The notes beneath the pieces are model-generated. The model ran no database searches. It saw only the letters and a program-made list of their open reading frames with translations, and was not told the DNA's origin. From an uncultured Christensenella sp. (GTDB lineage Bacteria; Bacillota; Clostridia; Christensenellales; UBA1242), in NCBI GenBank assembly GCA_964579205.1, contig CAZOFH010000003.1:18975-82974 (forward strand): a DNA stretch of 64,000 nucleotides. The letters run 5' to 3'. Both the position numbers and the translations under genes were made by a program. Positions 39,889 to 45,768 of the stretch are shown here, piece after piece; within the stretch, counting starts at the first letter, position 1, and each line of letters begins with the position of its first letter.

Positions 39889-41388
39889 ATGAAATTCAAA
39901 ACAAGTATCGGCGACGGGGCATTTTTGGGGCTGATGGTGTTTTGCCTTTTGACGCTCGCTATGTACATTTATTGGGTCGTGAGCGCTGTGTGGTGGCCTG
40001 CGGTTGCGTTGTCTGCCGTGTTGATTGTGGTGATTGTGCCGATTTATTTTGGTACAAAATATGTCCTCACTCGCGATAGGCTGAATATTTATTGTGGCGT
40101 TTTCTGTCGTACGGTGCCATACAGGAATATTATTTCGGTCACCGATGCAAACTGCATTACACCAGCATACGCGATGAGTCACAAGAGGATTTGTTTGCGC
40201 TATCTCGATGGCGATAATATCAAGGTGACTTATATCAGCCCGACCAATCGCGACGCATTCCGTGACGCGCTCAATACTGCTATGCAAAAGTCGATTGCTA
40301 CGCTAAAATCACAGGGCGACACCAACAACATCGAGGCTATTGAGGCTGTGGAGGCTATCAAGGTGCGCTTGGCTCAAGAGCACGAAATCTCACGTGCAGA
40401 GGAGCGCGCTTTGGCGCAGCAAGAGGATGAGCAGAAAAACAAGGCAAAAGAGGATTTGGCTCGCGAAATCAAAAAATTGGACGCTATTATCGACGGAAAT
40501 CTCGCTCCTGAGAGCGTCGTTTTGTCGCAGGAGCAAGAGAATATTATTGCTAGTCGTCGTGCTGCTGAAAGGAAACTTTTGGCGAAAGTCCGCAAATTAA
40601 AACACAAAAAGGACAAAGCTGAGGCAAAGCAATTACTCATCCAAAAGCAAGAGGAAGAATTCGCGCGTGAGTTCGATGCTCGCGAGACTGCTCGGGCTGC
40701 GCAAAAGGCTGCCAAAGAGGAAAAACCCAAATTGACCGCTGACCAAAAATTCGCCGAAAATGAGAGAAAAAAGGCGGAAAAATTCAAACAAAAAGAAGAA
40801 AAACGCAAGCAAAAAGCGGAAAAACAGGCTTTGGCGAAACAACAGGAGGACTTTGAGAACGAGAGTGTTTCGATTGAGCCGCAAGAGGAAAAGCAAAAGC
40901 CTCAAATCGAAAAAATCAAGTCAAAGAATAAGGACAAAATCAACACTGCCAAGCCGAAAAAACAAAAGAATAAACCTGCCACCCCAATATCCCAAGGTGC
41001 TAACGAGGCGAGCACGGAGGAGCAGCAGGCAGTAGAGAAAGATGCTGTGGACGCAAAGGCAAAAAAGAGTGCCGAGGCTGAGGCAAAGAAACTCCAAAAA
41101 GAGCAGCGTGTCAATGATAAAAAGGCTGCCAAGGAGCAAAAGGCTACCGCTAGACAAGCAGAAAAAGAGCAAAAAATCAATGACAAGCAGTCGACCAAAG
41201 CGCAGCGCGCTACTGACAAAAAAGCGGAAAAAGAACAGCGTGCGAGCAACAAAAAATTTGAAAAAGAAGTAAAAGCGGAGGCGAAAAAACTCAAAAAAGA
41301 AGCCGCTGCCGAAGCAAAAGCCGAAAAGAAATCTTCTGCTGAGCAACTAGCCAAAAAAGCCGCAAAATCACAGAAAAATGACCAATAG
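39889..41388 (+). CDS. Membrane protein with a bacterial PH-like domain and a long K/E/A/Q-rich tail
   Basis: Two N-terminal TM segments; TKYVLTRDRLNIYCG...PAYAMSHKRICLRY PH-like region; more than 300 aa of charged low-complexity sequence. Confidence 0.7.
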   Translation: MKFKTSIGDGAFLGLMVFCLLTLAMYIYWVVSAVWWPAVALSAVLIVVIVPIYFGTKYVLTRDRLNIYCGVFCRTVPYRNIISVTDANCITPAYAMSHKRICLRYLDGDNIKVTYISPTNRDAFRDALNTAMQKSIATLKSQGDTNNIEAIEAVEAIKVRLAQEHEISRAEERALAQQEDEQKNKAKEDLAREIKKLDAIIDGNLAPESVVLSQEQENIIASRRAAERKLLAKVRKLKHKKDKAEAKQLLIQKQEEEFAREFDARETARAAQKAAKEEKPKLTADQKFAENERKKAEKFKQKEEKRKQKAEKQALAKQQEDFENESVSIEPQEEKQKPQIEKIKSKNKDKINTAKPKKQKNKPATPISQGANEASTEEQQAVEKDAVDAKAKKSAEAEAKKLQKEQRVNDKKAAKEQKATARQAEKEQKINDKQSTKAQRATDKKAEKEQRASNKKFEKEVKAEAKKLKKEAAAEAKAEKKSSAEQLAKKAAKSQKNDQ

Positions 41389-41673: not shown

Positions 41674-41702
41674 TTGACAAATTCGCAAAAATGTTGCATA
41701 AT
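41674..41702 (+). promoter_or_regulatory. Sigma-A promoter of the RT; predicted +1 near the ATG
   Basis: TTGACA (41674-79), 17 bp spacer, CATAAT (41697-702); ATG at 41709. Confidence 0.7.
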
Positions 41703-41708
41703 TGGGGT

Positions 41709-42863
41709 ATGATAAAAGATAAGTTTGAAGACGTCTTTTCTCTAAAAAATTTGTATGAGGCGCATATTCGGGGTAGGCGGGCGAAACGGAGCAAGCGGCC
41801 GATTGTGGTGTATGAGCAGGGGCTACTCCACAATCTGCAGATTATGCTCGATGAGGTGCTGTCGGGCAAGTACAGGGTCAAAAAATATCACGATTTTGCC
41901 GTTTACGAGCCGAAAAAACGCCAAATACAGACGCTTTTGTATCGCGACAGAATTATTCAGCACGTTTTGTGCGACCACTTGATCGCGCCGTATTTTACCC
42001 AGCGCGCCGTCATTGATAATGGCGTTTGTCAGGTCGGCAAGGGGACGCATTTTACCCTCAATCGCCTAGTCGCCAACGCTCGCAAACTCGTCCTCCGCGA
42101 GGGCACAGCTGATTTGTATGTGCTAAAATGCGATATTTTGAAGTATTTTCCCAGCATTCCGCACGCCCAACTCAAGCGCCAAGTTTTGCATCATATCGAG
42201 GACAAGCGCTTGCGCGATTTTGTGGAAATGGTCATCGATAGTTATCACACTGCGCCGAGATATCTCATCGAGCACGGCATTCCGCTGGTCGAGCCGTGCG
42301 GCCCGCACCCGTACAATCCTAGCCTAGTCACCACGGGGCGAGGATTGCCTATAGGCAATCAGACGAGCCAAGTTTTTGGGATGTTTTACCTCGACCCGCT
42401 AGACAGATTTATCAAGGAGCAGTTGCGCGTCAAATGCTATTCGCGGTATATGGATGACTTTATCCTCATTCATCCAGACAAGCAGTTTTTACGGCAGGCG
42501 TTGGTCAAAATCAAAGAATTTTTGGACACGCTCGGGCTACAACTCAACGAAAAAACGAAGATTTTTCCGCTCAAAACGGGCGTCACATATCTAGGTTTTC
42601 GGCTGTATTTTTACCCGTCGGGCAAGGTTGTGCGACGCGTCGTGCCAAAGACGGTCAAGCGCTTTGTGTCGCGTGCAAAACTGATAAATTACGCATTTGC
42701 GCACGGACTAATCAAGGTGCCACGCGTGCAATCGATGCTGTCCGCTTATCACGGTCATCTCAAGCACGGTAATTGCAGAACTCTGGAATTGCGGCTCTTC
42801 AAACTGATAAAAATCAATGAAATTTATTCTCAACAAAAGGCTATTCAAAATGGAATCAACTGA
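41709..42863 (+). CDS. DGR-type reverse transcriptase (384 aa)
   Basis: YEPKKRQI, RDRIIQH, GKGTH, LKCDILKYFPSI, GLPIGNQTSQ (the DGR-type GxxxSQ motif), RYMDD and YLGF; no maturase or endonuclease extension. Confidence 0.93.
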   Translation: MIKDKFEDVFSLKNLYEAHIRGRRAKRSKRPIVVYEQGLLHNLQIMLDEVLSGKYRVKKYHDFAVYEPKKRQIQTLLYRDRIIQHVLCDHLIAPYFTQRAVIDNGVCQVGKGTHFTLNRLVANARKLVLREGTADLYVLKCDILKYFPSIPHAQLKRQVLHHIEDKRLRDFVEMVIDSYHTAPRYLIEHGIPLVEPCGPHPYNPSLVTTGRGLPIGNQTSQVFGMFYLDPLDRFIKEQLRVKCYSRYMDDFILIHPDKQFLRQALVKIKEFLDTLGLQLNEKTKIFPLKTGVTYLGFRLYFYPSGKVVRRVVPKTVKRFVSRAKLINYAFAHGLIKVPRVQSMLSAYHGHLKHGNCRTLELRLFKLIKINEIYSQQKAIQNGIN

Positions 42864-43362
42864 TGATGAACTCAATTTAGACATTACAAAAGATGCGCTC
42901 AGGGTGGTGGCGCGAAAGCCGTTTGTCTTGGAGAGTATCGACCCAAACAAGGATAAAGAAAAGGAAATGGAGGTTTTTACTGCGGCTAAAAAACTTTCTG
43001 AATATATCTTTGTGGTTACCCAAAATGCGCCGTCAAAATTTCGCTGGTCGATTGTGACGCGCCTGCAAAATACTAGCGTCGAGATTATCGAGGCGCTGTA
43101 TCTCGCGAATTTCGAGCGCGGCAACGAGCGGCTGAAATTTCAAAAAACTGCAGGGACCAAGTTGCGCCTGCTCGACCATTATGCCGAGGTGGGGTACAAA
43201 CTCAAACTTTTTCCGTTCAGACGCCTCGGTGTGATAACTAGGTATATCGTCGTCGTCCGCAACTTGCTAGCGGGCTGGACAAAGAGCACTCAGCGATATG
43301 AAAAATTGGCTGAGGAGAAATCTCGAGCATCTACCCAAGACGACGCGGCGAACGATAATTGA
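42850..43362 (+). CDS. avd: Avd-like accessory variability determinant (four-helix bundle)
   Basis: PSKFRWSIVTRLQNTSVEIIEALYLAN...LRLL...LLAGW resembles the bAvd pattern; basic helical protein overlapping the RT stop codon. Confidence 0.8.
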   Translation: MESTDDELNLDITKDALRVVARKPFVLESIDPNKDKEKEMEVFTAAKKLSEYIFVVTQNAPSKFRWSIVTRLQNTSVEIIEALYLANFERGNERLKFQKTAGTKLRLLDHYAEVGYKLKLFPFRRLGVITRYIVVVRNLLAGWTKSTQRYEKLAEEKSRASTQDDAANDN

Positions 43363-43620
43363 TTTTGCTGTCATTCGGGTGTTAGAGAGAAGTGGCAAAA
43401 ACAAAAAAGGACCCACCATATCGCAGGCAAAAAGGAAAATCTTCTGCATATTCGCCGTCTTGCTGCTAGTGAGTCGAAATTTGCGCCCGAGACTCGCTCG
43501 CTACGTCAGGACTCGGACCCCTTCATCCACCTCCGTGACTTCTGCACAGCAGTCCTTGGATATGCTGAATACTGGTCGTGTTGCCGCAGCGCGATTTTTT
43601 GCGCTATGTTCCGCAGCAAT

Positions 43621-43760
43621 TAGGGGGTGAAGCGAGGGGCGTACCGCTTGGCTATTGTTTACATTATTGTTATTATAAGAGGAACCTGAGGGGTTGAGAT
43701 TTTAGCTATTATTTGCATTATTATTGTTCGCAGAGCGCCCCCACGTGTAAACATAAGCAG
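43621..43760 (-). ncRNA. DGR template repeat (TR)
   Basis: Minus strand reads TGG GGG CGC TCT GCG AAC AAT AAT AAT GCA AAT AAT AGC TAA AAT CTC AAC CCC TCA GGT TCC TCT TAT AAT AAC AAT AAT GTA AAC AAT AGC CAA GCG GTA CGC CCC TCG CTT = WGRSANNNNANNS*NLNPSGSSYNNNNVNNSQAVRPSL; 14 AAY codons, an internal stop and a G/C-rich 3' end. Confidence 0.88.
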
Positions 43761-43841
43761 TCACAAACACAAAGTCCGTAGCCCTAAACGGCCGCTCTCG
43801 CAAAACAAAATACAGTTTTGGGTAGGCGGTCGTTCGCTAAT

Positions 43842-43870
43842 ATTTTATTCCTTTTTGCGTCTCTCGTCAA
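43842..43870 (-). promoter_or_regulatory. Dedicated sigma-A promoter for the TR RNA
   Basis: TTGACG (43870-65), 17 bp spacer, TAAAAT (43847-42) on the minus strand, about 100 nt upstream of the TR core. Confidence 0.72.
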
Positions 43871-44049
43871 CTGCTTTTTGTTACTTTCCGTGGCTCGTAT
43901 GTCAAAATTTTTCGGTTAAATTGGCTTTTGTGTGGGCGTCGGCTCGCTAATATTTTTTTATAATTTTTCGCTACTATCGGATTGCTCAAGAATTGGCAAA
44001 TTTTTTGCGGTCGACTATTAGATAGGTAGCAAGACACAAAAGCGAAACA

Positions 44050-44077
44050 AAAAGAAGACCTTGCGAGGTCTTCTTTT
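44050..44077. terminator. Terminator of glnS
   Basis: aaaagaagacct-tgcg-aggtcttctttt perfect 12-bp stem. Confidence 0.9.
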
Positions 44078-44082
44078 GATAA

Positions 44083-45768
44083 TTATTTGTTAAAAGAATC
44101 CTTGAGTCCGATAGTTTTGTTAAAAACTAGGCGGTCAGCAGTACTGTCCTTGTCGACGCAGTAGTAGCCTTTACGGACGAATTGGAACACGCGCCCCACT
44201 TCAGCACCCAGCACAAAATTTTCTGCCAGCGCCTCCGTTTCGGTGAGCGATTGCGGGTCAAAAATCTCGTCAATCGTCGTGCCGTTAGCCAACGCCTTGG
44301 CTGGCTCGAGGTATTCCATTTTTGTTAAATTGCCGATTTCGCGAATAGTCACGCGAGTAAAATTACCCTCGGCAACAAAGTGAATGGTACCCTTGACCTT
44401 GATGCCGCTGTTGTCGCAGCCGCTGCGAGTCTCAGGCAAGTACTCGCACTCGAGATAGTCGATTTCGCCATTCTCTTTGTACACCACATTGTTGCACTTG
44501 ATGACGTACGCGTTTTTGAGGCGAACCAGCCCGCCCAAGACGAGGCGGTTGTATTTCGCTGGTGGGTTGAGGCTGAAGTCCTCTTTTTCGATATAAACTA
44601 CGCGCCCGAATTGACTCTCGTGAGTGGTTTTCGGCTCGGCGTTCGGATTATTTTCTACCGCAATCGTCTCGTTTGCACCCTCGTAATTTGTGATTACCAC
44701 TTTGAGCGGGTCGAGTACAACCATTGCACGGTCGGCTGTGCGGTTGAGTTCTTCACGAATGTAATAATTTAGGTTTGAGATGGGCAGCACGGTGACCGCT
44801 TTTGTGACTCCGTTGTTCATCACGAAATTTTTGACCGCCGCGGCAGGGATACCCCTTCGCTTCATTCCCACAATCGTGTACAATCTCGGGTCGTCCCAGC
44901 CCATTACTTTGCCACTGTTGACCAGTTGTTTGAGGTAGCGTTTTCCCAAAAGGACATTTTCGATAGCCAATGCCGCGAATTCAATTTGGCGAGGCTTGTA
45001 TTGCAGGTCTGGGAAGCAATTATCCACTATCCAATTATACAGTGGGCGGTGGTCTTCAAAAGAAATGTCGCACATACTGAATGTGATGCCCTCGAGTGCG
45101 TCCTCAATCGGGTGGGCAAAATCATACATCGGATAAATGCACCATTTATCGCCCGTCTTGTAATGCGGTGTGTGCATAATTCGGTAAATAATCGGGTCAC
45201 GCATATTCATATTTGGGCTCGCCATATCGATTTTTAGACGCAGAGTCATACTGCCGTCAGGGTGGATGCCTGCACGCATTTCCTCAAAAAGTCGCAAATT
45301 CTCCTCAATCGGTCTGTCGCGATATGGGCTGTTTTGCCCAGCAGTTTTGAGGTCGCCACGGGTAGCAAAAACCTCGTCCGCCGTCAATTCGCAAGCGAAT
45401 GCCTTGCCCTCTTTTATCAGAGTTTTGGCAATTTCGTAAAACTTCTCAAAATACGCCTCACTCGAATAAATCACATTTTTTGGGGTGTAGCCCAGCCACC
45501 GCAAATCCTCGAGATAACTATCTGCAAAATCGCCGTCTTCCTTTGTAGGATTTGTGTCGTCCATTCTAAGGTTTGTGTAGCCGCCGAATTTTTTTGCCAT
45601 TTCAAAATCCAGTGTCCAAGCCTTGCAGTGTCCAATGTGCCAGTAGCCGCTCGGCTCAGGCGGGCAGCGGGTGATGACCTCGACCTGCTTGCCTGAGCGC
45701 AAATCCTCGATGATTGCCTCCTCGATAAAATTGGTCGGTGTAATATTGTCCAAAATTTCTTTGTTCAT
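44083..45768 (-). CDS. glnS: Glutamine--tRNA ligase
   Basis: PPEPSGYWHIGH, RMDDTNP, NMNMRDPIIYR, WCIYPMYDFAH, GWDDPRL and FQFVRKGYYCVD. Confidence 0.96.
   Translation of the reverse strand: MNKEILDNITPTNFIEEAIIEDLRSGKQVEVITRCPPEPSGYWHIGHCKAWTLDFEMAKKFGGYTNLRMDDTNPTKEDGDFADSYLEDLRWLGYTPKNVIYSSEAYFEKFYEIAKTLIKEGKAFACELTADEVFATRGDLKTAGQNSPYRDRPIEENLRLFEEMRAGIHPDGSMTLRLKIDMASPNMNMRDPIIYRIMHTPHYKTGDKWCIYPMYDFAHPIEDALEGITFSMCDISFEDHRPLYNWIVDNCFPDLQYKPRQIEFAALAIENVLLGKRYLKQLVNSGKVMGWDDPRLYTIVGMKRRGIPAAAVKNFVMNNGVTKAVTVLPISNLNYYIREELNRTADRAMVVLDPLKVVITNYEGANETIAVENNPNAEPKTTHESQFGRVVYIEKEDFSLNPPAKYNRLVLGGLVRLKNAYVIKCNNVVYKENGEIDYLECEYLPETRSGCDNSGIKVKGTIHFVAEGNFTRVTIREIGNLTKMEYLEPAKALANGTTIDEIFDPQSLTETEALAENFVLGAEVGRVFQFVRKGYYCVDKDSTADRLVFNKTIGLKDSFNK

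Follow-up and report, generated by a model that had tools for sequence, protein, structure and literature searches.

A chromosomal DGR engine with probable remote surface-protein targets in a Christensenellales-like Clostridia bacterium

The stretch of DNA that we analyzed (64,000 nt; hereafter, the window) very probably carries the engine of a chromosomal diversity-generating retroelement (DGR) without targets of its own, from which four or more genes for surface proteins, located on other contigs, are diversified remotely. The window corresponds to positions 18975-82974 of C3, a 122-kb contig of a 20-contig, 1.14-Mb metagenome-style assembly (G000) that is 95.5% complete with 0.02% contamination and whose GC content is even from contig to contig. 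We found the RT/Avd/TR anatomy of a DGR in the window, variable repeats (VRs) whose differences from the template repeat (TR) are restricted to TR adenines, a single target family to which the VR-bearing genes belong, and the same design in congeners. In the mechanism that we propose, the reverse transcriptase (RT) and Avd would bind the TR RNA and produce cDNA with misincorporation opposite template adenines, and this cDNA would replace homologous VRs of 122-130 nt in at least four genes located at least about 60 kb away. The targets would form one subfamily of a surface-protein family with at least 14 members, each of which has an N-terminal membrane anchor, a putative ligand-binding, DUF6273-like domain of ~370 aa with the VR at its end, Listeria-Bacteroides repeats and a C-terminal InlB-B-like domain, and the outcome would be that the binding surfaces of several surface proteins are varied at once. 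As far as can be judged from sequence, the element is probably active at present and its target proteins probably bind ligands.

Reverse transcriptase, Avd-like gene and template RNA

The DGR RT is encoded at 41688..42863 on the (+) strand, in a frame that is open from 41448 and with which relatives align from about 41697-41709. A profile search matched it to Pfam RVT_1 at 2.3e-15, and its translation contains the motifs IGNQTSQ and YMDD. RTs of the DGR clade are marked by [LIV]GxxxSQ, which replaces QGxxxSP, together with YxDD, and the window RT carries this signature. Among solved structures, its top match was the 328-aa 'Reverse transcriptase' of 8ub7-8ube (E=4e-36), which we take to be the Bordetella phage bRT complex, whereas group II intron RTs matched far more weakly (2e-9). 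Directly 3′ of the RT gene and overlapping its end, the accessory gene of a DGR is present as an Avd-like gene (42817..43362, (+) strand), which matched Pfam bAvd (1.6e-6; profile positions 8-106 of 107) and NCBIfam DivGenRetAVD (1.9e-8; profile positions 2-104 of 104). Although these matches are full-length, both scores fall under the curated cut-offs, and no sequence match was found in the PDB, which points to a divergent Avd.

A genome-wide search of the 20 contigs returned no second RT, Avd or TR, i.e., there is only one of each, and neither RT nor Avd, as delimited here, was present in the protein collection. With the RT and Avd frames intact and the catalytic motifs kept, the engine looks intact, and this argues against the reading that the element is a relic, i.e., a DGR that formerly diversified targets and is now inactive, with its TR and VRs decaying, which we consider quite unlikely for this and further reasons given below. 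The product of the gene directly upstream of the RT gene (39889-41388, (+) strand) begins with a bacterial PH domain (bPH_4, 1.2e-11), after which come ~350 aa of low complexity that are rich in Lys, Glu and Ala.

Housekeeping genes neighbor the DGR in the window (dnaN, yabP, glnS at 44083-45768 on the (−) strand, and an NTP transferase) and also the target gene on contig C1 described below (murE-like, secE and nusG). We rejected a prophage location on account of these neighbors at both loci, which argue that the DGR resides in the chromosome and not in a phage. Among relatives of the RT, those with names are labeled 'Candidatus Borkfalkiaceae bacterium' and 'uncultured Christensenella sp.'

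The TR lies at 43629..43758 on the (−) strand (43758->43629), outside any long ORF and on the strand opposite to the RT and Avd-like genes, which adjoin it on the (+) strand. It is A-rich (41 A in its 122-nt core; 14 AAY codons) and translates as W-G-R-S-A-N-N-N-N-A-N-N-S-*-N-L-N-P-S-G-S-S-Y-N-N-N-N-V-N-N-S-Q-A-V-R-P-S-L. The original prediction that the TR encodes a WGRSA...VRPSL-type stretch is thereby confirmed, although that reading had overlooked the in-frame TAA and the opposite-strand placement. Since the A-mutated strand is the minus strand, the template RNA must run against the direction of RT and avd. A promoter-like site suited to such an RNA is located at 43842..43870 on the (−) strand (43870->43842; TTGACG, 17 nt, TAAAAT; 10/12 consensus matches), and its hexamers are kept (TTGACT ... 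TATAAT), with a different spacer sequence, in the relative G009, whose RT is 69% identical and whose TR is likewise inverted. At the other end, a terminator-like hairpin followed by a T-run (43401..43428, (−) strand, 43428->43401) would close the TR RNA unit, the G009 equivalent being GGGTGAGCC-TTTTTTT, while a glnS terminator (44050..44077, (−) strand, 44077->44050; 12-bp stem, then a T-run) splits glnS from the TR unit. These signals suggest that the TR RNA, at ~430 nt, is transcribed separately from the minus strand.

Downstream of the TR, a conserved block at 43440..43575 on the (−) strand, which includes GGAGGTGGATGAAGGGGTCCGAGTCC at 43534->43497, shows about 65-78% identity to G009 (in 40-column blocks), compared with 35-50% upstream of the TR; across 43575->43440, its conservation equals that of the TR itself. 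The core of the block, a ATGAAGGG..GTCC motif, is also found 3′ of the TR in G007, G015, G031 and the named relatives L031 and L032, whatever the orientation of the TR. An Rfam search of the TR RNA gave no match, and the folding energy of the post-TR region is unexceptional (z=-0.42); our claim for the block is one of sequence conservation only, not of structure. In the Bordetella element, spacer RNA downstream of the TR is functionally important, and by analogy, we regard the post-TR block as a candidate for the portion of the DGR RNA that serves in RT/Avd binding and in priming. The conservation of promoter and block also speaks against a relic. In L032:4880-5980 (CAJTQF010000001.1, 'uncultured Christensenella sp.' MGBC105391), a single RT gene is followed by four copies of the post-TR motif (GGAGTTGAAGGGGCTTACGTCCTGCC) at intervals of ~345 nt, an arrangement that resembles four TR RNA units in tandem.

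Two similar, short terminator-like elements, GGCGGTCGTTCGCTAATATTTT and GGGCGTCGGCTCGCTAATATTTTT, occupy positions 43820-43850 and 43930-43955 of the window on the (+) strand, between glnS and the TR promoter, with no evident gene to terminate. They may be members of the genome's intergenic hairpin-repeat family.

Remote variable repeats and their host genes

The original prediction described a trans-acting mutator and proposed a search of the whole genome with the TR in which mismatches are free at adenines. We ran this search with TR 40-mers in which every A was a wildcard and no more than three other mismatches were allowed, followed by anchoring on GGGGGCGCTCTGCG, and found four VRs, all on other contigs and all confirmed by blastn: C1:217428-217557 and C4:116263-116384 on the (−) strand, and C11:972-1093 and C18:1034-1155 on the (+) strand. 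No VR or target lies in the window, as had been claimed: the 14-mer GGGGGCGCTCTGCG is single-copy on C3, tblastn finds no target paralog on C3, and the contig is VR-free for about 59-62 kb on either side of the TR. With all four VRs on other contigs, each lies at least about 60 kb from the TR. When JGI metagenome contigs were scanned for exact patterns from the ends of TR and VR, 0 matches were returned.

Differences between TR and VRs are confined to TR adenines except for one non-A change per VR (C1 type and C4 type). Specifically, in the 122-nt core, 17 of the 18 mismatches of the C1 VR (hypergeometric p=8e-9) and 15 of the 16 mismatches of the C4-type VR (hypergeometric p=1e-7) fall on TR adenines, with ~40% of TR adenines changed per VR. 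Four VRs with this restriction in surface-protein genes elsewhere in the genome support the predicted action in trans. The VRs share 96-99% of their non-A positions with the TR, whereas their flanks have diverged to about 66%. Likewise, the C1 and C4 VRs agree with each other at 78/81 non-A positions and 19/41 A positions, compared with 159/240 positions in the 240 nt upstream of the VR. Such an excess of non-A identity over flank identity indicates that the template has overwritten the VRs since the paralogs diverged, recently homogenizing them, which speaks against a relic.

An IMH/IMH* pattern with an inverted repeat is also present. TR and VRs have the GC-rich end GCGGTACGCCCCTCGCTTC in common, after which the VRs continue with TCATATC and the TR with ACCCCCT, and 17 nt downstream of this shared end, C1 and C4 contain a GC-rich inverted repeat (GCCGCG-5nt-CGCGGC); the inverted repeat is weaker in C11 and C18 (4-bp).

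Some caution applies to the VR count. C4, C11 and C18 share a block of 800 nt at 100% identity (C4:116260-117060; C11:~270-1100; C18:~330-1160), which starts ~700 nt upstream of the VR, stops at the VR end and has diverged sequence on both sides. The contig ends overlap by exactly 55 nt, as is characteristic of de Bruijn assembly at k=55, and the identical block is probably one collapsed graph edge that was threaded into three contigs. If so, there are four target genes but two independently observed VR sequences; a similar caution was voiced for a Stenotrophomonas DGR (Wu et al. 2018, PMC5758913). The target subfamily may have one or two further members with an unassembled VR, to judge from N-terminal gene fragments at C8:2-508 and C9:17-217.

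These features also lend something to a different explanation, namely that the VR contigs stem from another strain, organism or phage, or that the assembly hides an adjacent target. This would fit a 20-contig metagenome-style assembly with 55-nt end overlaps, the position of three VRs ~1 kb from contig ends within the identical block, and the many family members at contig ends. We nevertheless regard an artefact as highly improbable: the TR is about 59-62 kb from the ends of a VR-free contig, the C1 target lies 14 kb inside a 232-kb contig beside murE-like, secE and nusG, contamination is low and GC content uniform over the contigs, and a near-complete congener (G007, see below) shows the same dispersed pattern.

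All four VRs are located inside large genes, in the same reading frame, and these genes encode proteins predicted to be membrane-anchored at the surface, in agreement with the earlier proposal that surface proteins are targeted. The intact C1 target comprises 707 aa, with an N-terminal hydrophobic anchor and a ~370-aa domain that ends in the VR (residues about 374-411 of 707), followed by a Listeria-Bacteroides repeat (Flg_new, 1.7e-11) and then a divergent InlB-B domain. Contrary to what was expected originally, the VR is thus internal, found mid-protein rather than at the C-terminus, and the IMH and the hairpin belong to the coding sequence.

The target family has at least 14 members by tblastn, many of them at contig ends, and takes up roughly 3% of the genome; only four members align with the TR at the DNA level. 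Other paralogs have a variable stretch between conserved W/T-x-R-S and AVRP-x-L motifs. We considered these as cryptic targets and rejected them, as their VR-equivalent DNA either cannot be aligned to the TR or mismatches it at non-A positions as often as at A positions. Such a TR-unmatched segment is present in at least 10 paralogs beyond the four, several of them in tandem and many at contig ends; they include C1:122160-129449, C1:229174-231666, C15:18483-22058, C16:712-2817, C14:20722-23808, C8:40998-43562, C17:10505-14029 and C11:25295-27379, and look like former or never-targeted family members.

The variable domain is best described as DUF6273-like. The C1 target's N-terminal domain has no Pfam match, including to PF19789, even at E<=10, and in the protein collection, the C1 target forms a singleton cluster with no near-identical orthologs. 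Many homologs that are 36-44% identical to it carry PF19789 (DUF6273), however, and in one of them (P0003), the match (8.9e-10; residues 302-397) covers the VR-equivalent part. We modeled residues 40-425 of the C1 target with AlphaFold2 from an input of 62 homologs, and the model is confident (pLDDT 95.4; pTM 0.93). Foldseek returned 130 matches for this model in the PDB, none with E<=0.001 and none to a solved C-type-lectin-fold (CLec) variable protein of the Mtd and TvpA type, the top one being a non-significant match (E=0.016) to the IgA peptidase of Thomasclavelia ramosa (9qa6), while the best matches in BFVD were phage DUF6273 proteins (E 1e-4 to 1e-2). The N-terminal domain of 9qa6 is annotated as DUF6273; it has no effect on catalysis, and no function was shown for DUF6273 (PMC12402451). 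Structural matches to DUF1566 and Lcl were weak and non-significant, and the W-x-R-S ... AVRP-x-L motif is merely suggestive of CLec. Of the DUF6273/CLec-fold targets predicted originally, the DUF6273 part finds support in the homologs with PF19789, and the CLec part found no solved CLec match by Foldseek; we therefore call the domain DUF6273-like and leave a CLec fold unproven.

A nonsense codon in the template and the design in relatives

The in-frame TAA of the TR lies at 43702..43704 on the (−) strand (43704->43702). The corresponding codon is TAC in G009 and TAT in G007; in the VRs, it reads TCT in C1 and TAG in C4 (~116345), C11 (~1015) and C18 (~1077), after which the frame stays open for another 330-560 codons. 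Recoding of TAG was ruled out, since the genome contains no suppressor tRNA and TAA, TAG and TGA each end long ORFs, as in the standard code; accordingly, the VR TAG is a stop, and the long open frames beyond it mark the stop as recent. TAG is one A-site change away from TAA, while it would take a non-A change to derive it from TAC or TAT, which places homing of the C4-type VR after the mutation in the TR.

Targeted codons of DGRs avoid the creation of nonsense codons (PMC10907252). By a rough estimate, about half of the homing events from the present TR would leave TAA, TAG or TGA, and the TR TAA reads as a recent, mildly harmful mutation. We also considered that the TAA acts as a combined on/off and diversity switch, with the TAG in the C4-type VR as the off state, which we judge unlikely. 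If true, homing would each time bring either a rewritten binding surface or, when TAA is left unchanged or becomes TAG or TGA, a truncated protein, which would combine phase and antigenic variation of a dispersed multigene family under one RT/TR in a 1.1-Mb genome. An adaptive on/off role of the TAA is possible but unsupported.

The nonsense codon, where relatives encode Tyr, is also among the observations that a relic would explain, along with the stop in three VRs, the at least 10 paralogs that no longer align with the TR at the DNA level, and the result that no VR turned up in G009, the nearest relative in which the TR is likewise inverted, perhaps because its assembly is fragmented. Against this stand, in addition to the intact engine and the conserved promoter and post-TR block, the near-identity of the VRs to the TR outside adenines, the TAG that lies a single A-site step from the present TAA and thus dates homing to after the TAA arose, and the frames that remain open past TAG. 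A chromosomal engine that diversifies remote genes hence remains our preferred reading.

Of 16 congeners, 9 have an RT homolog, as does one genome among 16 that represent the order's other families. In the congener G007 (1.1 Mb in 3 contigs), tuf-RT-Avd-TR all lie on the same strand, with the position of Avd conserved, and there are seven good, all-different VRs and one decayed copy, which are spread across all three contigs. Each of the seven has 15-20 A-site mismatches and 2-7 others, including a shared pair at the 3′ end, and all belong to the target protein family; six of the seven good VRs are located off the TR contig, and one VR is just 2.7 kb from the TR. Dispersed multi-target DGRs thus recur in the genus. 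G015 contains one VR on a contig separate from that of the TR, and G031, from a different family, has one adjacent VR 1.5 kb after the TR. A likely history starts from an adjacent RT-Avd-TR-target cassette, with subsequent expansion and dispersal of the target family within the genus, and with inversion of the TR and loss of the adjacent target, also likely, in the lineage of the window and G009. The G009 contig C38 (L030; CAVEBU010000038.1) is labeled 'Alistipes finegoldii', although its DGR and genome neighbors are those of the window's Clostridia genus, and the label is probably wrong.

Comparison with known DGRs

Targets that are not adjacent to the RT were reported for 45 of 372 DGRs, with a maximum of seven non-adjacent targets in Treponema, and ten DGRs had remote targets, defined as lying >100 kb from the RT; internal VRs and TRs on a different strand than the RT are documented as well (Wu et al. 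2018, PMC5758913). Diversification in trans was also reported in Thiohalocapsa PB-PSB1 (PMC10907252). A survey of metagenome DGRs was unable to detect DGRs with remote targets (Roux et al. 2021, PMC8144416), and such cases are consequently under-counted. Among the papers covered by our search, none ties DGRs to Christensenellales in substance. In a reduced-genome gut Clostridia lineage (Christensenellales/Borkfalkiaceae-like), one retroelement would serve four to eight dispersed surface-family genes, which suggests that variable surface recognition is central to how the lineage lives. The lineage also offers a natural system in which to study how the cDNA of a DGR reaches several targets far away and why some paralogs stay targets and others do not.

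Among known systems, Treponema denticola is alike in that a single chromosomal RT and TR, outside a phage, serve several non-adjacent surface-protein targets (PMC5758913; PMC4891356). The Treponema clade differs by its Architecture C with an HRDC accessory gene (PMC5758913), in place of which the window element has an Avd-like gene; unlike in T. denticola, moreover, there is no adjacent target, the TR is inverted, the variable domain is DUF6273-like and internal, and the genome, of 1.1 Mb, is that of a Christensenellales-like Clostridia bacterium. The Bordetella phage BPP-1 element (mtd-avd-TR-brt) shares with the window element the RT, Avd and TR, A-to-N mutagenesis, the GC-rich IMH-like end, the GC-rich inverted repeat after the VR and an RNA segment downstream of the TR, which is important in BPP-1 and conserved in the window. 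It differs in that its cassette belongs to a phage, its one target is adjacent and has the VR at the C-terminus, and all components lie on one strand in the order avd-TR-brt.

In Faecalibacterium prophages, DGRs target the DUF6273 domain, whose C-terminal end holds the VR (PMC11792537), and our targets resemble these in the position of the variable region at the end of a DUF6273-like domain, in the gut Firmicutes host, and in that the best fold matches of the C1 target model are phage DUF6273 proteins. The prophage targets, however, are phage proteins encoded beside the DGR, whereas those of the window element are cellular, predicted to be membrane-anchored, multi-domain and far off, and the C1 target, unlike the Faecalibacterium proteins, gives no Pfam DUF6273 match. 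Thiohalocapsa PB-PSB1 differs by its nine DGR loci and other target families (putative antigen sensors), and the nonsense-avoidance rule described there (PMC10907252) is broken by the TAA in the window TR. The finding leaves the working principles of DGRs unchanged: multiple remote targets, an inverted TR and internal VRs are each already documented, the nonsense codon in the template being the exception.
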